A stretch of 64,000 nucleotides of DNA from the NCBI GenBank assembly GCA_964527185.1, contig CAZGOI010000001.1, forward strand, positions 167,097 to 231,096. Direction: 5' to 3'. The position numbers were made by a program, and so were the translations under genes. The notes under the pieces were generated by a model that saw nothing but the letters and a program-made list of their open reading frames with translations, ran no database searches and was not told the DNA's origin. This DNA is from an uncultured Candidatus Saccharibacteria bacterium (GTDB lineage Bacteria > Patescibacteriota > Minisyncoccia > Phycocordibacterales > UBA9973). How positions within the stretch are numbered: position 1 is the stretch's first letter; the number at the start of each line of letters is the position of its first letter. Positions 3,218 to 60,861 of this stretch are shown in pieces.

Positions 3218-4744
3218 TTATCTTGCATATTCTATAACTCTATTTTCGCGTATGACTGTGACCTTGATCTCGCCAGGATAGGTTAGTTCTTGTTCTATTT
3301 TCTTGGCAATATCGTGAGCCAAATCTTTTGATTGAATATCACTTAACTTTTCTGGTGTGACAAATATTCTGATTTCACGTCCGGCAGATAAGGCATATGA
3401 CTTTTCAACCCCCTCAAAACTTTTAGCTAACGCCTCGAGGTCCTGCAGTCTCTTGATGTAATTTTCCACAGAATCACGGCGTGCCCCAGGACGACCACCA
3501 GAGATCATATCTGCTGTTTGAACTATAACTGCCTCGATAGATTCGTGCGGGCAATCATCGTGGTGACTTTTCATAGCTGTAATGATGCGTGGATCGGCTC
3601 CAAATTTTTGAAGGATTCTAATACCTATGTCTATATGCGTGCCTTGGACTTCGTGGTCGAGAGCTTTACCGATATCGTGTACTAGGGCGCCAGCTTTGGC
3701 AATCTGGATGTCTGCGCCTAATTCTTCGGCAAGCATTCCAGCAATGTGGGCCATCTCGATTGAATGCTGAAGAACGTTTTGGCCGTATGATGTGCGGAAG
3801 TACAAACGACCAATTATAGCGACGATGCGCGGATCGAGATTAAAAATTCCACATTCATATACCGCTTGGTCACCCTTATCTTTAATAATTTTGTTTATAT
3901 CTTCTTGGGCTTTGACTACAACCTCTTCAATCTTGGCTGGTTGAATTCGACCATCAAGTATCAAATTCTCGAGGGCGAGCCTGGCAACTTGGCGACGAAC
4001 AGGGTCAAAAGATGATATGACAATTGCACCTGGAGTCTCATCGATAATAAGTTCAACCCCAGCTGCCCGTTCAAATGCTCGGATATTACGACCCTCTTTG
4101 CCAATAATCTTGCCCTTGACTTCATCATTTGGAATATTGACCGAAGTCGTCATCATCTCGCTCGCTGTTGACGAGGCAAGACGATTGATCGAGGCCGCTA
4201 TAATATCTTTTGCCCGACGATCAAGCTTTTCAGTATTTGCAACTTCCATCTTTTGCATACGTACCAGCAAATCTTCTTCGTAACGACTCTCAATGTTTTT
4301 AAACAAAACTCCTTTGGCGTCTTCGACAGAAAGATGTGCGATTTTTTCAAGCTCACTTTCTTTTTCAGCTTCGATGTTGTCGATACGTTCTTTTATTTTT
4401 TTTACTTCCTCTACTTTTATTTTTACATTTTCGACTTCTTTATCTATCTCGACTTGTCGAGCATCGAGCAATTCTTCTTTTTTAATCAAACGATGCTCTG
4501 TTTGCTTGAACTCTTCTTCTTTTTTTGCGGCTGATTGCTGAGACTCTTCTGTTTTTTCCTCGGCCTTTTTCTTGGCTTCATCGAGCACTCTCTGGGCCTC
4601 TTCTTTGGCACCGAGCATAATTTGCTTGATCTCAAGCTCCATCGAACCCTTCTGACCGAGGGAGATAATGACTCGCAAATAGTAACCAAGACCAACCCCA
4701 GCGACAAGCGCCAGAGCTGAAATTACAATTGCTGTTAAACTCAT
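3218..4744 (-). CDS. rny: ribonuclease Y
   Basis: 508 aa. N-terminal TM helix, long coiled-coil and KH region (GKIIGKEGRNIR). HD domain (HSIEMAHIAGMLA..LVHDIGKA). Confidence 0.9.
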   Translation of the reverse strand: MSLTAIVISALALVAGVGLGYYLRVIISLGQKGSMELEIKQIMLGAKEEAQRVLDEAKKKAEEKTEESQQSAAKKEEEFKQTEHRLIKKEELLDARQVEIDKEVENVKIKVEEVKKIKERIDNIEAEKESELEKIAHLSVEDAKGVLFKNIESRYEEDLLVRMQKMEVANTEKLDRRAKDIIAASINRLASSTASEMMTTSVNIPNDEVKGKIIGKEGRNIRAFERAAGVELIIDETPGAIVISSFDPVRRQVARLALENLILDGRIQPAKIEEVVVKAQEDINKIIKDKGDQAVYECGIFNLDPRIVAIIGRLYFRTSYGQNVLQHSIEMAHIAGMLAEELGADIQIAKAGALVHDIGKALDHEVQGTHIDIGIRILQKFGADPRIITAMKSHHDDCPHESIEAVIVQTADMISGGRPGARRDSVENYIKRLQDLEALAKSFEGVEKSYALSAGREIRIFVTPEKLSDIQSKDLAHDIAKKIEQELTYPGEIKVTVIRENRVIEYAR

Positions 4745-4944
4745 AAAAGTGACAGTGTCACTTAAAAAACACGCATTATCTTAGAAGCGTCATATATTTG
4801 AAATTCTTATACGAACGATCGATGGAAAGGAAACTTTTGTTCATAAAATAAATTAAACTCATCAGCAGTATCAGATAAAACCGTATTTTAAAAGCGAGCA
4901 CCAAAAATAACTGTTAAAATTCGATATATCTATAGTACCGCACA

Positions 4945-22214: not shown

Positions 22215-23414
22215 ATGGCAGAAGAATTTAATCGAGATAAGCCTCACGTAAATGTGGGCACCATTGGTCACGTTGACCACGGTAAAACAACATTAACAGC
22301 CGCTATCCTTGCAATACTTGCCCGTGCAGGTGATGGCTATGGCGCGAAGATAAAAGGTGTCGATCAGATCGACTCAGCACCTGAAGAAAAAGCTCGTGGT
22401 ATCACGATCGCTCTTTCTCACAACGAGTACTGGACGCCAACACGTCACTACGCTCACATAGATGCCCCTGGACACGCTGACTATATTAAAAACATGATCA
22501 CTGGTGCTGCTCAAATGGACGGCGCTGTGCTTGTCGTTGCTGCGACTGATGGTGCTATGCCTCAGACACGCGAGCACGTCCTCCTTGCAAAGCAAGTTGG
22601 TGTTCCAAAAATCATAGTGTTCTTAAATAAATGCGACATGGTTGACGACAAAGACATGATCGATCTCGTCGAAGAAGAAATTCGAGAGCTCCTAACAAAA
22701 CAAGGTTTCGATGGTGCCAATGCTCCAGTCATCCGCGGTTCAGGCCTAAAAGCTCTTGAATCTAAAGACAACAACGATGAGTGGGCCAAAAAAGTTATGG
22801 ATCTTGTCAACGCGCTTGATACCTACATTCCAATTCCAGAACGCGATACAGCAAAGCCATTCCTAATGCCAATCGAAGACATATTCTCAATCGAAGGCCG
22901 TGGCACTGTTGTCACTGGCAAGATTGAACGCGGAATCGTTAAAGTCGGTGAAGACGTAGAAATCGTCGGCATCAAAGACACTGCTAAGACCACAGTCACT
23001 GGTATCGAAATGTTCAACAAAAATTTGAAAGAAGGTATGGCCGGTGATAACGCTGGAATCCTTATTCGTGGTATCAAAAAAGAAGATATTACTCGCGGTC
23101 AAGTTCTTGCCAAGCCAGGTACAGTTACTCCGCACTCAGAATTTGAATGTGAGGTCTATGTCCTAAAAAAAGAAGAAGGTGGTCGTCACACTCCGTTCTT
23201 TACTGGTTACAAACCACAGTTTTATATCCGTACGACTGACGTAACCGGAGAGGCTACGCTTCCATCTGGCACCGAAATGGTTATGCCAGGCGATACGGTT
23301 AAACTTGCGGTCAAACTCGTAACTCCAGTTGCACTCGAAGAGCAAATGCACTTTGCTGTCCGTGAAGGTGGCAAGACAGTTGGTGCCGGTGTCGTTACAA
23401 AGATTGTTAAGTAA
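22215..23414 (+). CDS. tuf: elongation factor Tu
   Basis: 399 aa. [18 protein letters not shown] and NKCD G-motifs. Confidence 0.95.
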
Positions 23415-26346: not shown

Positions 26347-26760
26347 TTGTTGTATAATAATCACATGGAAGAAAAACTTTCTGAAAAAGCAAGATTCTCA
26401 ATAGTCGCCCGCATAAAAAGCACCAACCACGCGCTTCGTGGGCTTATAATTTTTTTCAAAGGTACTCACAACGCCTGGCTCCATTTATTTTTTGGAATAG
26501 CGGCAGTCTACCTCGGGTTTATACTCCATATATCAAGCGGTGAATGGGCGACGCTCGTTCTAACCATCGGCCTCGTTATGGTAACTGAAGCTATAAATAC
26601 TGCAATCGAAATCGATATCAATCTAACAAGCCCAACCTATCACCCGTATGCCCGCGATACTAAAGACATCGCTGCCGCCACTGTTGTAATTGCCATCATA
26701 GCTGCGGGCACAAACGGCCTCATAATTTTTCTCCCAAAAATTTTAACCCTAATGAAATAA
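26347..26760 (+). CDS. dgkA: diacylglycerol/undecaprenol kinase family (DgkA-like) membrane protein
   Basis: 137 aa, 3 TM helices. DAGK_prokar signature region VTEAINTAIE. Inserted between rplB and rpsS. Confidence 0.65.
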   Translation: MLYNNHMEEKLSEKARFSIVARIKSTNHALRGLIIFFKGTHNAWLHLFFGIAAVYLGFILHISSGEWATLVLTIGLVMVTEAINTAIEIDINLTSPTYHPYARDTKDIAAATVVIAIIAAGTNGLIIFLPKILTLMK

Positions 26761-36589: not shown

Positions 36590-39322
36590 ATGGAAGGTTT
36601 GAATTTAGATAATGCTCCGAAGTTTAAAACTCCGCAGGAAGAGTTAGAATTTTTACGCGCGCATATCAAGGAGCGCGAGAAATTGTTGCAAGAATCTGGG
36701 CAAGAAGTTTACCACGAAAATCTGGCAGACGACGTTCTTTCTGAATATCGCAAGTTTGAGCCAGAAGAGGTCATGCACAAGAGCGCCACCATCAAAGAAA
36801 AAGACGCGCAAGACCTGGTCTTGCGTCTCCACCCAGAACCCCACGATAAGAAGATGGAAGAAATGCTCGGCATACTTCTCGACAAAGGTATTTCAAACGC
36901 CCTGTCGATCATCGGCAAGATGAACAACCCGCACCTAGACGACGACTTTCACCGATTCCTCGTCCAATACCTCTACAGCACCCACAAAATCCCCGGCCTA
37001 AAAGAAGGCAGCCCGCTTTTCAAGTCGCTCGACATGAAACTTTTTGAAATAACACTGCCAGACCCGACAGAAGACGAAAAAGAAAAGAAAAATTTAAAAG
37101 AATTACTCTCGGCTATGGATCAATTCTATGCCGGCATGCACTCGGTTGGCCTTGGCCGTGAAAATGCCAACCGCAATCACTTCACACTCGAGATCGCCCT
37201 GGCCGAAGGCAGCGACAGCTTTGTTTTCTATACCGCCGTCCCGACCCACAAAGCTGAACTTTTTGAAAAACAATTAATCGGCGTTCACCCAAACGCAAAA
37301 GTCAACGAAATTTCCGACGACTACAATATTTTCACCGAGGGTGGTTCGGTCGCGGCCTCGTATGCCACCCTTGCCAACCCCGAAGTCTACCCGATCAAGC
37401 TCTATGATTCCTTCGACCACGACCCGCTCAATATCATCCTCAACGTTTTTACTAAATTAAAAAAGACCGGCGAAGGCGCAGCCATCCAATTCACCATCTG
37501 CCCAGAAGACGACGATATCATAAAAAAATTCCACATAATTTTGGGCGATGTCAAAGAGGGAATGTCGGTCAAAACGGCTTCGAGCATGACTCGCCAATTC
37601 GGCAAAGAAGTCGGTGCCCTCCTAACCCATGCATTTACGGGGCAAAATAAAAAAGAAGAAAAAAAAGTAGATGAAAAAGTAGTCGAAGACATCGGTGAGA
37701 AAATAAAAAGCACGATCATGGCCGCCAATATCCGCATCGTCACCTCGGCCGAGACCAGCCTGCGCGCCAAGCAGATACTCTCTGACATCGAATCTTCATT
37801 CAACCAATTCACCGAATCGCACAGGAACGGCTTTAATTGGAATCACCCCGACGGTCGCAGTTTGCACGACCTGGTGCACGATTTTTCATACAGAAATTTT
37901 AGCGACAAATATTCTATGCCGCTCAATCTAAAAGAACTCTCGACGGTTTTTCATTTCCCATACGGCATTTCTTCTTCACCACAATTAAAACAAGCCCGAG
38001 CTGGCATCGCCCCAGCGCCGATTGAAATAGGAACCGAGGGCGTCGCCCTTGGAACCAATAGCTATCGAGGCAAAGATACAATAATCCATTTTGCCGAGGA
38101 AGATCGCATGCGGCATCTATATGTCATCGGCCAGACAGGTACCGGCAAAACAACGATTATGAAAAATATGATCGCCCAAGATATCGCCGCCGGCCACGGT
38201 GTCTGCTATATCGACCCGCACGGGACAGACATTCAAGATATTTTAAGCTACATTCCAAAAGAGCGCATCGACGATGTCATATATTTCGACCCGGCCTATA
38301 CTGCTCGGCCGATGGGCCTCAACATGCTCGAGTATGACCCAAAATATCCCGAGCAGAAAACTTTTGTCGTCAATGAGCTGATGAATATTTTCAATAAGCT
38401 TTTTGATATGAAGACGGCTGGTGGCCCGATGTTTGAACAGTATTTCAAAAATTCTGCCTTCCTAGTCATGGAGCACCCAGAGAGCGGCGCCACACTGCTT
38501 GAGATCGGGCGTGTGCTCTCCGACAAGGAATTCCGCGATATGAAACTCTCGCATTGCAAAAACCCGATCATCACCCAATTTTGGAAAAGCGCCGAGCAAA
38601 CAACCGGCGACCAGTCGATCGCCAATTTTGTACCGTACATCACATCAAAATTCGACAACTTCATTTCAAACGACATCATGCGCCCGGTAGTCCTTCAAGA
38701 AAAGTCGGTTTTCAACTTCCGCGATATCATGGACAATAAAAAAATCCTCCTGGTCAATCTTTCAAAAGGCCGACTCGGTGATATCAACGCCGACCTAATC
38801 GGGCTCGTAATCGTAAATAAAATTCAGATGGCGGCGCTGTCGCGCGTCGATATGTATGGCAAGGCGATGGAAGACTTTTTCCTGTACATCGATGAATTTC
38901 AAAATGTCACAACCGATTCGATCGAATCTATTCTGTCAGAAGCCCGCAAATACCGCCTGTCGCTTACCGTCGCCCACCAATACATCGCCCAGCTCGAAGA
39001 AAATATCAAAAACGCTGTCTTTGGCAACGTCGGCTCGATGGCCGTTTTTCGCGTTGGAGCCGAAGACGCCGAAGCCCTCGAGAGCAAATTCAAGCCGACA
39101 TTTACCACAGCCGACATCATGAAAATTGAAAATTACAATGCCTACATTTCGATGCTAGTGAATGGCCAGCCGACAAAACCTTTCAACATCGCAACATTTC
39201 CACCGCCACAGGGCAACATGGAGATCGTCGAGAGCATAAAAGAACTCTCATACCTTAAATATGGCCGCGACCGCAATGAAGTCGAAGAAGAAATTATGAA
39301 TAAATATCGACAGGGTGCATAG
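36590..39322 (+). CDS. FtsK/TraD/VirD4-superfamily P-loop ATPase with large N-terminal domain of unknown function (soluble)
   Basis: 910 aa. The C-terminal half has Walker A HLYVIGQTGTGKTT, Walker B FFLYIDEFQNV and coupling-protein-like Q motif LSLTVAHQYIAQL. No TM helices. The first ~500 aa have no recognisable motifs. Confidence 0.6.
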   Translation: MEGLNLDNAPKFKTPQEELEFLRAHIKEREKLLQESGQEVYHENLADDVLSEYRKFEPEEVMHKSATIKEKDAQDLVLRLHPEPHDKKMEEMLGILLDKGISNALSIIGKMNNPHLDDDFHRFLVQYLYSTHKIPGLKEGSPLFKSLDMKLFEITLPDPTEDEKEKKNLKELLSAMDQFYAGMHSVGLGRENANRNHFTLEIALAEGSDSFVFYTAVPTHKAELFEKQLIGVHPNAKVNEISDDYNIFTEGGSVAASYATLANPEVYPIKLYDSFDHDPLNIILNVFTKLKKTGEGAAIQFTICPEDDDIIKKFHIILGDVKEGMSVKTASSMTRQFGKEVGALLTHAFTGQNKKEEKKVDEKVVEDIGEKIKSTIMAANIRIVTSAETSLRAKQILSDIESSFNQFTESHRNGFNWNHPDGRSLHDLVHDFSYRNFSDKYSMPLNLKELSTVFHFPYGISSSPQLKQARAGIAPAPIEIGTEGVALGTNSYRGKDTIIHFAEEDRMRHLYVIGQTGTGKTTIMKNMIAQDIAAGHGVCYIDPHGTDIQDILSYIPKERIDDVIYFDPAYTARPMGLNMLEYDPKYPEQKTFVVNELMNIFNKLFDMKTAGGPMFEQYFKNSAFLVMEHPESGATLLEIGRVLSDKEFRDMKLSHCKNPIITQFWKSAEQTTGDQSIANFVPYITSKFDNFISNDIMRPVVLQEKSVFNFRDIMDNKKILLVNLSKGRLGDINADLIGLVIVNKIQMAALSRVDMYGKAMEDFFLYIDEFQNVTTDSIESILSEARKYRLSLTVAHQYIAQLEENIKNAVFGNVGSMAVFRVGAEDAEALESKFKPTFTTADIMKIENYNAYISMLVNGQPTKPFNIATFPPPQGNMEIVESIKELSYLKYGRDRNEVEEEIMNKYRQGA

Positions 39323-48877: not shown

Positions 48878-49257
48878 GGGACTGACGGGCTTCGACGAAA
48901 GACTGTCATCATCTGTGTGCATGTAAAGTGCGGAGGTATCTTTTTAAACTACTTCCAAAAGACTAAGTGCAAACAAAGTCGCTTCAGTGAAGTCACCATA
49001 TTTTGGTAATTTCGCTTTCGCTGTCGCCTAACGGCCACGCGAATGTTCACTCTCTAGACATCCGATATAGGGAGTGGGCATAATTTATCGGGTTAAGATT
49101 TGGGGATTGCTCGACCCCGAGTCTGACAATCTAGAGCTCGGTGTAGCGATATTTTTCTTATTCTCTAGTCGCTATATTTAAACCAAAAAAATAAGATACA
49201 CATGTAGATTCACTTATGAGCGCCTTTTGCATCTGGGTTCAACTCCCAGCAGTTCCA
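48878..49257 (+). ncRNA. ssrA: tmRNA (SsrA)
   Basis: 5' GGGACUG pairs with 3' CAGUUCC-A. The tRNA-like T-arm is CTGGG-TTCAACT-CCCAG. Internal tag ORF GCA AAC AAA ..GCC TAA encodes ANKVASVKSPYFGNFAFAVA. Lies directly downstream of smpB. Confidence 0.85.
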
Positions 49258-49298
49258 CATTTTTTATTTAAGCACTTTTGTGTATAATAGCTAGACTT

Positions 49299-51245: not shown

Positions 51246-51319
51246 CCACCCTTAGCTCAGTTGGTTAGAGCACAGAGCTTATACCTCTGGGGTCCTTGGT
51301 TCGAATCCAAGAGGGTGGA
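51246..51319 (+). tRNA. tRNA-Ile (anticodon UAU)
   Basis: CCACCCT..AGGGTGG-A acceptor, D-arm GCTC/GAGC, anticodon stem CAGAG/CTCTG with loop CTTATAC, T-loop TTCGAAT. No encoded CCA. Confidence 0.7.
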
Positions 51320-51321
51320 CA

Positions 51322-54556: not shown

Positions 54557-54628
54557 GGTCCCGTCGTTCAATGGATAGGACGTAACTTTGCGGAAGTTAT
54601 GATGCAGGTTCGATTCCTGCCGGGATCA
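54557..54628 (+). tRNA. tRNA-Arg (anticodon GCG) - identity tentative
   Basis: GGTCCCG..CGGGATC-A acceptor, D GTTC/GGAC, anticodon stem TAACT/AGTTA with loop TTGCGGA, T-loop TTCGATT. Confidence 0.6.
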
Positions 54629-54721
54629 CACAAATATGAAAAACATCTTTTTATCATAGTTTCTTCGTCTGTGATATGATAGATACATTAACATCTTAAT
54701 GATTTTTTAAATTTTTAAACC

Positions 54722-60422: not shown

Positions 60423-60514
60423 TGGCGGAACCGGAGGGATTCGAACCCTCGAGGGGGTATAAAGCCCCTACCTCTTTAGCAAAGAGGTACGTTAGACCAC
60501 TCTGACACGGTTCC
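60423..60514 (-). tRNA. tRNA-Ser (anticodon GCU)
   Basis: Reverse complement GGAACCG..CGGTTCC-G-CCA. Loop TTGCTAA. Long variable arm TAGGGGCTTTATACCCCCT. T-loop TTCGAAT. Confidence 0.85.
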
Positions 60515-60584
60515 AAAATGCCCCTACACATTATCATATTTGATATTTTTACTCAAAACTATTGTTATGCTAGTATGTGAAAAT

Positions 60585-60599
60585 TGGAGGCGTGGATGA
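60585..60599 (+). repeat. duplicated 5' 15-nt fragment of the downstream class II tRNA
   Basis: GGAGGCGTGGATGAG is identical to 60689-60703. Preceded by TGCTAGTAT at 60567-60575. Followed by a 13-bp perfect hairpin GGGTAAATATAAA-CTGC-TTTATATTTACCC. Confidence 0.6.
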
Positions 60600-60688
60600 G
60601 ATGGGGTAAATATAAACTGCTTTATATTTACCCGCGAGCAGAGCGAGAGAACCACTCAGACACGAGATTCCGACAATGCGGAGCATAT

Positions 60689-60776
60689 TGGAGGCGTGGA
60701 TGAGTGGTTTAAATCAACGGTTTACTAAACCGTCGACCCTTAATCGGGTCCGTGAGTTCGAATCTCACCGCCTCCG
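60689..60776 (+). tRNA. class II tRNA (Ser-like) with anomalous anticodon ACU; possible pseudo or unusual tRNA
   Basis: GGAGGCG..CGCCTCC-G acceptor, 3-bp D stem with long loop, anticodon stem ACGGT/ACCGT with loop TTACTAA, 17-nt variable arm, T-loop TTCGAAT. Confidence 0.55.
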
Positions 60777-60861
60777 CAACGATCTTTTCAAACAACCCCC
60801 TGCTATTTTTGTATAAAAAGAATTTGTAGTACACTTAACTTAAGTATAAATAATAAATGAT

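Follow-up and report, generated by a model that had tools for sequence, protein, structure and literature searches.

To our knowledge, bacterial tRNAs with a genomically encoded adenosine at the first position of the anticodon (A34) are treated as essentially forbidden outside tRNA-Arg and, in a few taxa, tRNA-Leu. The described systems that resemble the gene examined here in encoding A34 are tRNA-Arg(ACG), with its enzyme TadA, the tRNA-Leu(AAG) of some Firmicutes and the tRNA-Thr(AGU) of Mycoplasma, in which A34 is unmodified. Fifteen ANN anticodons other than that of tRNA-Arg, ACU included, have been given as absent across bacteria (bioRxiv 10.64898/2026.05.15.725136), and no description of a bacterial tRNA-Ser(ACU) was found in the literature searched. 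A gene of this kind is present in a stretch of 64,000 nt (here called the window) from an uncultured Candidatus Saccharibacteria bacterium in the Patescibacteriota (GenBank accession number CAZGOI010000001.1, bases 167097–231096), where it is preceded on the same strand by a structured leader that begins with a copy of the 5' end of the tRNA. Unlike the other bacterial A34 tRNAs, the ACU anticodon falls in a split codon box (AGY for Ser, AGR for Arg), in which inosine or superwobble would lead to missense decoding, and tRNA-Ser(ACU) coexists with a G34 isoacceptor. Taken as a whole, the locus is best explained by a functional, AGU-decoding tRNA-Ser(ACU) together with a leader that would gate its maturation, a reading to which we assign a probability of about 0.4.

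A class II tRNA-Ser gene with an ACU anticodon

The tRNA-Ser(ACU) gene lies at 60690–60776 on the forward strand, with its anticodon at 60724–60726, a G73 discriminator base and no encoded CCA; its identification rests on ARAGORN, Rfam and conservation. A preliminary description of the locus had reported a tRNA with a 3 bp D stem, a long variable arm, the T-loop TTCGAAT and the anticodon loop TTACTAA, and had proposed a check with ARAGORN. All four features were seen, as was every other sequence feature of that description at its given position, and ARAGORN, when run, called tRNA-Ser(act) at 60690–60777 (+), in agreement with the Rfam tRNA model (RF00005), which scored 56.3 bits at 60690–60776 against a gathering score of 29. 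The gene folded at -34.7 kcal/mol (z = -3.6), and the cloverleaf, long variable arm, G73, TTCGAAT loop and covariance-model score are together those of a class II elongator tRNA-Ser. The divergent neighbour of the gene is a tRNA-Ser(GCU) with an encoded CCA (60423–60514, reverse strand), called by ARAGORN and scoring 46.6 bits with the Rfam tRNA model. In three related loci (L136, L229 and L176) the tRNA-Ser(GCU) gene is instead found directly upstream of tRNA-Ser(ACU) in a same-strand tandem.

Relatives of the gene were collected in two scans. One genome per species was searched with a pattern made of the T-arm and 3' acceptor strand of the tRNA, and metagenomes were searched with tRNA nt 1–27, a pattern that excludes the anticodon. 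The genome scan found the same tRNA, with the anticodon ACT, in at least 11 Patescibacteria genomes (labelled Paceibacteria, Nomurabacteria, Minisyncoccia and similar). When the metagenome matches, the window and the loci from the genome scan were added together, the tRNA body was present in at least 132 public Patescibacteria loci, and among the matches listed 127 had the anticodon ACT, five had TGA and none had GCT. The earlier claim of a genomically encoded and exceptional A34 is borne out by these counts, which also speak against the possibility, raised at the same time, of a sequencing error in a gene that has a canonical anticodon in its relatives.

The 125 complete ACU genes comprised 57 distinct sequences, in all of which the anticodon loop UUACUAA was unchanged. 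Across the 57 sequences, compensatory changes were found in the anticodon stem (A-U/G-C at 28-44 and G-C/A-U at 30-42) and in the variable arm (pairs 47-60 and 48-59), the mark of purifying selection acting on both structure and anticodon in different species. A gene whose anticodon loop is invariant and whose stems covary does not answer to the pseudo-tRNA that had been suggested, and both a pseudogene and a sequencing error were ruled out by conservation across relatives. Judged by this conservation, the ACU anticodon is a settled state in a large Patescibacteria clade and the gene is probably a functional serine tRNA.

The anticodon had also been described as one transition away from that of the neighbouring tRNA-Ser(GCU), but the two genes share only 63% identity, and a point-mutated copy of the neighbour was ruled out. 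The identity of the window gene to genes with the same body and a TGA anticodon is 80–87%. Because of this difference tRNA-Ser(ACU) is best placed, by sequence identity, as a remodelled paralogue of tRNA-Ser(UGA) and not as a mutated GCU gene. One contig of 840 kb holds both tRNA-Ser(UGA) and tRNA-Ser(ACU) (L008 and L097). In the sequence of the ACU loci, ARAGORN called tRNA-Ser(GCU) 99 times, compared with 125 calls of tRNA-Ser(ACU).

Decoding of the AGN box

Charging by SerRS is independent of the anticodon. Since tRNA-Ser(ACU) has the body of a tRNA-Ser(UGA) and SerRS does not read the anticodon, it should be charged with serine by this enzyme, and its use on the ribosome should likewise follow. 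To place the codons that it could read, AGN codons were located in the conserved genes of the window and the proteins were aligned with homologues of solved structure. In uL2, uL14 and the H+-PPase there were 14 AGA codons, which aligned with arginine (nine), lysine (one) or variable positions (four), and never with serine; the invariant arginines encoded by AGA include those of EDDPRNP and IRFD. The AGU codons of the conserved proteins aligned with conserved serines. The genetic code is, on these alignments, standard in the AGN box.

Codon usage for AGU and AGC, which the preliminary description had proposed to check, is about equal in the window (9.4 and 8.9 per 1000, respectively). The EF-Tu gene (22215–23414) contains no AGA, AGG, AGT or AGC codons, the AGN box being avoided in this highly expressed gene, and an open reading frame (ORF) of 910 amino acids (36590–39322) uses AGC 15 times and AGT once, against the near-equal use in the window overall.

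Were A34 to be deaminated to inosine (I34), the tRNA would read AGU, AGC and AGA, and the decoding of AGA would be ambiguous or reassigned. By the determinants of TadA, the loop bases U33-A34-C35 would suit the enzyme, as they equal those of its substrate tRNA-Arg(ACG) and only position 36 differs. However, the codons ending in U, C and A do not stand for one amino acid here, AGA being Arg and AGU Ser, and AGA occupies invariant arginine positions, never serine positions, in uL2, uL14 and the H+-PPase. Two other Patescibacteria genomes (L025 and L090) have genes for tRNA-Arg(UCU), and the CGN-box tRNA-Arg of the window has the anticodon GCG, not ACG (ARAGORN). I34 would be harmful here because inosine would read AGA, and we find deamination of A34 barely credible.

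Since AGA remains an arginine codon in this genome, A34 is most likely left as adenosine, and tRNA-Ser(ACU) would then be a dedicated Watson-Crick decoder of AGU beside tRNA-Ser(GCU). In a sense-codon reassignment experiment in E. coli, an orthogonal tRNA with an ACU anticodon read AGU, with AGC and AGA below detection (PMC11066159). A tRNA-Arg with GCG instead of ACG is the pattern reported for Mollicutes that lack TadA (PMC3711424), and the ORFs of the 64 kb window contained no deaminase signature ([HC]AE...PCxxC). Absence of TadA is probably the reason for an unmodified A34. Two tRNA genes of the window, those for tRNA-Ile(UAU) at 51246–51320 and tRNA-Arg(GCG) at 54557–54629, have anticodons that are unusual in bacteria and fit a lineage without TilS and without TadA; tRNA-Ile(UAU) was also found near the ACU gene in 18 related loci.

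Anatomy of the leader in the window

The leader starts with a copy of the 5' end of the tRNA. This segment (60586–60600, +), here called the mimic, is identical to nt 1–15 of tRNA-Ser(ACU) and is near-invariant in all leaders of the two types set out below. The preliminary description had placed a 15 nt copy of the 5' end of the tRNA 104 nt upstream; the copy and its spacing stand, but the direct repeat is 18 nt long when the preceding ATT is included (ATTGGAGGCGTGGATGAG at 60583–60600 and 60687–60704). With up to two mismatches allowed, the 15-mer had two matches in the window where 0.03 were expected, and two matches were reached in none of 100 shuffles. Upstream of the mimic is an extended -10-like box, TGCTAGTAT (60568–60576, +), presumed to be the promoter of a transcript containing both leader and tRNA. 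The promoter had been claimed earlier, and the box is indeed present and shared by relatives, as many related loci have TGCTA(G/A)(T/G)AT 8–14 nt before either the leader copy or the tRNA; a simple -35/-10 consensus scan, however, does not call it.

The perfect 13 bp hairpin that had been noted between the two copies is confirmed. This hairpin, P1 (60604–60633, +), has its arms at 60604–60616 and 60621–60633 and the loop CUGC. It is followed by a small hairpin, GCGAGC-AGA-GCGAG (60634–60647, +), with a 3 nt loop and, as read from the sequence, tandem G.A mismatches. One pair of the G.A hairpin (54–58) changes from C-G to U-A in two sequences of the type A alignment, and its GCGAGCGAAGCGAG recurs at the tip of P3 in the leader of L025. 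Two elements further downstream had been missed. The first, AACCACTCAGACACG (60650–60664, +), here called the antisense, is the putative switch strand; it complements tRNA nt 6–20, pairing at 13 of 15 positions, and also the mimic, with a bulge. The second is the mini-hairpin P5, AUGC-GGA-GCAU (60676–60686), which together with the preceding CCGACAA occupies 60670–60686 (+), ends 3 nt before the tRNA and covaries. Bases 60651–60664 of the antisense are also identical at 13 of 14 positions to the reverse complement of the 5' end of tRNA-Ser(GCU) (60496–60509). The antisense may therefore also pair with the neighbouring tRNA-Ser(GCU), or may have been converted from it.

Two types of leader with covarying helices

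Full leaders were found in at least 26 ACU loci, 11 of type A (including the window) and 15 of type B, and profile and covariance-model searches showed that type B leaders also precede two tRNA-Ser(UGA) genes (L025 and L090). Type A is the short form, 99–120 nt in length, and consists of the mimic (tRNA nt 1–15, then A-UGG), P1, the hairpin GCGAGC-GAA-GCGAG, the antisense, CCGACAA and P5, followed by the tRNA. Type B is longer (128–139 nt). Its 5' part is made up of the mimic (nt 1–12), P1 with the same CUGC loop, P2, P3 and GAGGGAAGG, and its 3' part of P4 with a GNRA loop, ACGAAG, a short antisense, GACGA and P5, again directly before the tRNA.

The helices of both types are supported by covariation. 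For the 39 pairs of type B, 86.5% of the cells in the alignment were paired, compared with 30–40% when the partners were slid, and 17 pairs changed on both sides; none of 500 shuffles reached the observed value. Type A has 35 pairs with 93.9% of cells paired, and seven of them changed on both sides. Compensatory changes in P1 affect four stem pairs in type A and three in type B, while its loop and apical stem are kept in both types and in the leaders of tRNA-Ser(UGA). In P5 of type A, pairs 93-99 and 94-98 covary (mostly UAC/GUA, with UGC/GCA in the window and UAU/AUA in L041), and in its type B equivalent, RY-GAA-RY, both pairs are changed on both sides in seven of 16 sequences. Leaders of ACU and UGA genes from different lineages have in common the conserved unpaired motifs GAGGGAAGG and ACGAAG and the P1 loop CUGC. 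The G.U pairs of the helices show the tRNA strand to be the RNA strand of the leader.

The leader is a conserved, covarying, structured 5' RNA family with two types, and no private insertion of this genome; both its anatomy and its conservation are solid. As in riboswitches, a conserved covarying domain lies upstream of the gene and on its strand. The preliminary description was right to group the 5' fragment and hairpin with the tRNA, as the arrangement is that of the whole family. Among the options that it listed, a tRNA-derived regulatory RNA comes closest to the leader as we see it, but without the pseudo-tRNA that was part of the same option, and a miniature inverted-repeat transposable element (MITE) or integrative remnant does not fit a family that is conserved, covaries and has two structural types. 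No such tRNA leaders were found in the literature searched on the candidate phyla radiation.

Several other identities for the leader were tried and rejected. In the window, a Shine-Dalgarno-like GGAGG is followed by AUG and a 35-codon ORF that starts in the mimic. A leader peptide was rejected because the ORF is not kept in relatives (a GUG start and an early stop in L041, no start in L025) and the changes in P1 are compensatory and non-synonymous. No U-tract follows any leader hairpin, which leaves no intrinsic terminator or attenuator, and a promoter inside the leader (CCGACA...TATATT) would have a spacing of just 8 nt. Hammerhead core (CUGAUGA...GAAA), HDV-like, pistol and twister features were absent by eye. 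A likeness of P4 to helix 8 of SRP RNA (GGUCCGGAAGGA in L049) had no support from Rfam, and weak matches to COG2827-RNA were on the opposite strand and far below threshold.

Four to five covarying helices, strongly conserved single-stranded motifs and a leader that on its own folds into a closed multi-helix domain could also belong to an independent small RNA, for example a protein platform, that uses the tRNA only for the cut by RNase P that forms its 3' end and in which the mimic is a relic. Non-coding RNAs that are linked to a tRNA and matured by RNase P are an established theme, MALAT1-mascRNA being one. A small RNA of this sort would, however, leave unexplained why the leader has been found exclusively before tRNA-Ser genes and why its mimic and antisense track the cognate tRNA, and the frequent loss of the leader also counts against it. 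We consider it distinctly improbable.

Mimic and antisense follow the cognate tRNA

The two leaders that precede tRNA-Ser(UGA) genes match their own tRNAs. In L025 the mimic GGAGGCGUGCCU equals the first 12 nt of the tRNA of that locus and the antisense AGGCACGC is complementary to the mimic and tRNA, and the same is true of the mimic GGAGGUGUGGCU and antisense AGCCACACCU of L090. In type A, the antisense pairs with tRNA nt 6–20 at 13–15 of the 15 positions in all eight leaders compared, which takes the complementarity five positions past the end of the mimic. Two loci (L161 and L202) have GGC in place of GGU in the tRNA, and the antisense has the matching GCC; the change in the tRNA lies outside the mimic. 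Mimic, antisense and cognate tRNA thus change together in a three-way covariation. The helix between mimic and antisense in type A is 94.8% paired, and the changes in it are one-sided, mostly on the antisense side and mostly of a kind that preserves pairing as G.U.

Because the mimic is identical to the 5' strand of the tRNA, two topologies of the precursor are possible. The antisense can pair with the mimic or with tRNA nt 6–20, and the two pairings are mutually exclusive. In the minimum-energy folds of all 23 leader and tRNA sequences folded together, the acceptor stem was built with the mimic and the 5' strand of the tRNA was placed on the antisense. The mimic formed 4–7 of the seven pairs in the acceptor stem of this swapped fold, with six or seven in all but L187, and the fold was 5–20 kcal/mol below the summed energies of leader and tRNA folded apart. 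The folded leader and tRNA region of the window gave z = -8.5.

The swapped fold is in effect a cloverleaf with an insertion of 104–147 nt after nt 12 or 15, and the native promoter precedes the mimic. It could be read as a tRNA gene with an intron-like insertion in the D-loop, in which the mimic would be the true 5' exon and everything up to the second copy would be spliced out by some splicing activity. All ACU loci and all leader-bearing loci nevertheless keep a contiguous, intact tRNA, among them the 11 ACU loci found by the 3' end only, and a decayed second copy was observed in no ACU gene, the loci found by the 3' end again included. A bulge-helix-bulge (BHB) motif was not evident by eye, at some 100 nt the insert falls far short of the size of a group I intron, and we know of no bacterial machinery for such splicing. 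An intron is very improbable because the contiguous tRNA is always there, and the split gene that was an option in the preliminary description is unlikely for the same reason.

A proposed strand-swap gate on tRNA maturation

The arrangement that we favour is a gate on the maturation of tRNA-Ser(ACU). The leader, from the mimic to the start of the tRNA (60586–60689), would share a transcript with the tRNA, initiated at the promoter that immediately precedes the mimic, and the mimic and the 5' strand of the tRNA would compete for two partners, the antisense and the 3' acceptor strand of the tRNA. During transcription the helix between mimic and antisense could form first. If the leader closes in this way, the cloverleaf would form and RNase P would release a normal tRNA, with removal of the leader. 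In the strand-swapped state, the antisense would sequester tRNA nt 6–20 while the mimic holds the 3' acceptor strand, and no mature tRNA would result. Such a gate would follow the logic of a riboswitch expression platform and would explain the direct repeat without transposition. The direct repeats would also make the leader unstable, with loss or tandem duplication by unequal recombination.

The anatomy, the conservation, the covariation and the competing pairings are observed; co-transcription, processing by RNase P, gating, a controlling signal and the state of A34 are what we infer. We put forward the gating function as a tentative proposal that is somewhat more likely to fail than to hold. 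It is unlikely, on our estimate, that the leader represents a new class of cis-regulatory RNA, with a sensor domain closed by a tRNA-mimicking strand, that by strand exchange with the 5' acceptor/D strand of the tRNA would determine whether the precursor folds and is cut by RNase P, and so would exert riboswitch-type control over the maturation of a Ser-ACU tRNA with unmodified A34.

A number of observations weigh against a gate. Most relatives do without a leader, approximately 85 of the 127 ACU loci being leaderless, with the TGCTA(G/A)(T/G)AT box directly before the tRNA, and approximately 14 of the 127 having truncated leaders only; the leader is on this account dispensable. The scans themselves demanded an intact 5' or 3' end of the tRNA, which biased what was found. 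In type B, only 66% of the cells in the helix between mimic and antisense are paired (approximately 83% in a 6 bp core), with real mismatches in several lineages, which is poor pairing for a switch helix supposed to be essential. Part of the preference for the swapped fold follows automatically from the presence of a repeat and an antisense, and the invariance of the mimic could stem from gene conversion with the tRNA and not from selection. No ligand, protein partner or signal is known for the leader, and Rfam returned no family for it at gathering thresholds or at E values up to 10, except for a sub-threshold match to GA-cis, discussed below. The weakness of the type B helix and the dispensability of the leader keep alive both an independent small RNA and the neutral or selfish origin considered next.

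Gain and loss of the leader

The search for empty sites in related loci that had been proposed as a check was successful, as there are loci in which the promoter box abuts the tRNA directly. The direct repeat that bounds the leader is 12, 15 or 28 nt long and begins exactly at +1 of the tRNA, the exceptions being the ATT in the window and L041 and a 16 nt flank in L090. Truncated leaders form a decay series (L181, L182, L128, L199, L135, L237, L144, L235 and L131), and nested units were also seen: in L153 an old short leader precedes a complete type B leader, and in L192 and L200 type B tails precede a type A leader. In L090 (1182–1345, reverse strand), the type B leader is flanked by a 28 nt repeat made up of ACAATAGAATACATAC, which is 16 nt of non-tRNA flank, and tRNA nt 1–12, and a third, partial copy, ATACGGAGGTGT, lies further upstream. 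The pattern in L090 suggests that a tandem duplication took place recently and that a deletion came after it.

This history would suit a selfish or neutral insertion, in which a small non-autonomous element or a duplication product enters tRNA-Ser genes at nt 12/13 or 15/16. The target would be duplicated so that an intact tRNA survives, the leader would persist without harm and decay by deletion, and its hairpins would serve only to avert interference. The direct repeat forms the exact boundaries of filled and empty alleles, the promoter adjoins the mimic in the same way as it adjoins the tRNA of relatives without a leader, and identical tRNA sequences occur with a type A leader, with a type B leader or with none. 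The decay series, the nested units in L153, L192 and L200, and the 28 nt repeat of L090, with its non-tRNA flank and third partial copy, can all be placed in the same account. The truncated and nested patterns, however, fit unequal recombination between direct repeats and selfish insertion equally, and the 28 nt repeat is likewise equally explained by unequal recombination.

The marks of a mobile element were looked for and not found. There are no terminal inverted repeats at the leader, as a MITE or transposon would have, and no transposase, integrase or reverse transcriptase gene nearby. Searches of 1.65 Mb of related sequence with nhmmer and covariance models matched only before tRNA-Ser genes, with no leader copies at unrelated sites. 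Nor does the insert resemble an integrative element between att sites, as its 89–135 nt contain no genes and its helices covary. One scan of viral contigs with the conserved leader core gave a single match, which had neither a tRNA in its vicinity nor any other feature of the leader, and a phage origin was rejected, that scan having given nothing convincing. The conservation of unpaired motifs across lineages further argues for a sequence-specific function. A selfish or neutral insertion is, in our view, unlikely, though it is the strongest of the alternatives to a gate on maturation of the tRNA.

Other features of the window

In the ribosomal protein operon of the window, a hydrophobic, membrane-like ORF of 132 amino acids (26365–26760) lies between the genes for uL2 and uS19. 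A tmRNA gene at 48878–49258 encodes the tag peptide ANKVASVKSPYFGNFAFAVA.

Significance

Two features of the locus are new, an A34 tRNA in a split codon box and a leader for which no counterpart at tRNA genes has been described. Across a large and diverse bacterial clade a split box has come to have a fixed ANN anticodon, beside a G34 isoacceptor and, in the genome of the window, with a tRNA-Arg there that is GCG and not ACG. This provides a natural system in which to ask whether the loss of TadA permits A34 and what use a cell has for a Watson-Crick decoder dedicated to AGU. The logic of the leader unites, in one compact, covarying RNA, a mimic of the 5' end of the tRNA with a structured core and with an antisense to that tRNA. 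Should the leader turn out to be selfish, it would still clearly exemplify a structured insertion, carried by a tRNA gene, whose evolution proceeds through gain and loss mediated by repeats.

Comparison with known systems

Among A34 tRNAs, the closest parallel is with Mycoplasma, which shares with this lineage a reduced genome and an apparently altered set of tRNA-Arg (GCG for ACG), as fits an absence of TadA (PMC3711424; PMC11066159).

Non-canonical introns and split tRNAs of archaea, which carry BHB motifs, resemble the leader in the point of insertion in the D-arm and in an intervening sequence that pairs with an exon. They differ in that here a complete downstream tRNA is always kept, there is no BHB, and no bacterial splicing endonuclease or ligase pathway is implicated. 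The tRNA-fragment duplications at genomic islands and prophages are similar in that a direct repeat of part of a tRNA flanks inserted DNA. In the leader, however, it is the 5' end that is repeated, the insert is 89–135 nt long and geneless, its RNA structure is kept and it includes an antisense to the target. Isolated 3' fragments of tRNA-Ser with no 5' half were found in Streptomyces (L012), Dechloromonas (L087) and Pandoraea (L099); these look like ordinary att-site duplications that are unrelated to the leader.

Some resemblance to the leader is seen in the Rfam family GA-cis (RF02987), a candidate motif of unknown function. In L049, the 3' half of the type B leader and tRNA nt 1–16 (4695–4758, reverse strand) span the whole model and share with it GAG.G.AGG, a hairpin, CGA.GAC and a tandem-G.A hairpin with a GAA-type loop inside GCC/GGC. 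The score of 20.3 bits is below the gathering score of 34.7, so that L049 falls short of the family threshold, and neither the type A leader of the window nor L172 nor any of 12 other loci gave a match to GA-cis.

The expression platforms of riboswitches and attenuators are the remaining comparison. The leader differs from them in containing no terminator, and any regulation by it is putative; its downstream partner would be the acceptor and D region of a tRNA, in place of a terminator or ribosome-binding site. What the leader has in common with these platforms is a competition of three strands, here the mimic, the antisense and the 5' end of the tRNA with their three-way covariation: a structured domain has a closing helix whose 3' strand can pair downstream instead, with sequence shared between the 5' strand of that helix and the downstream partner.

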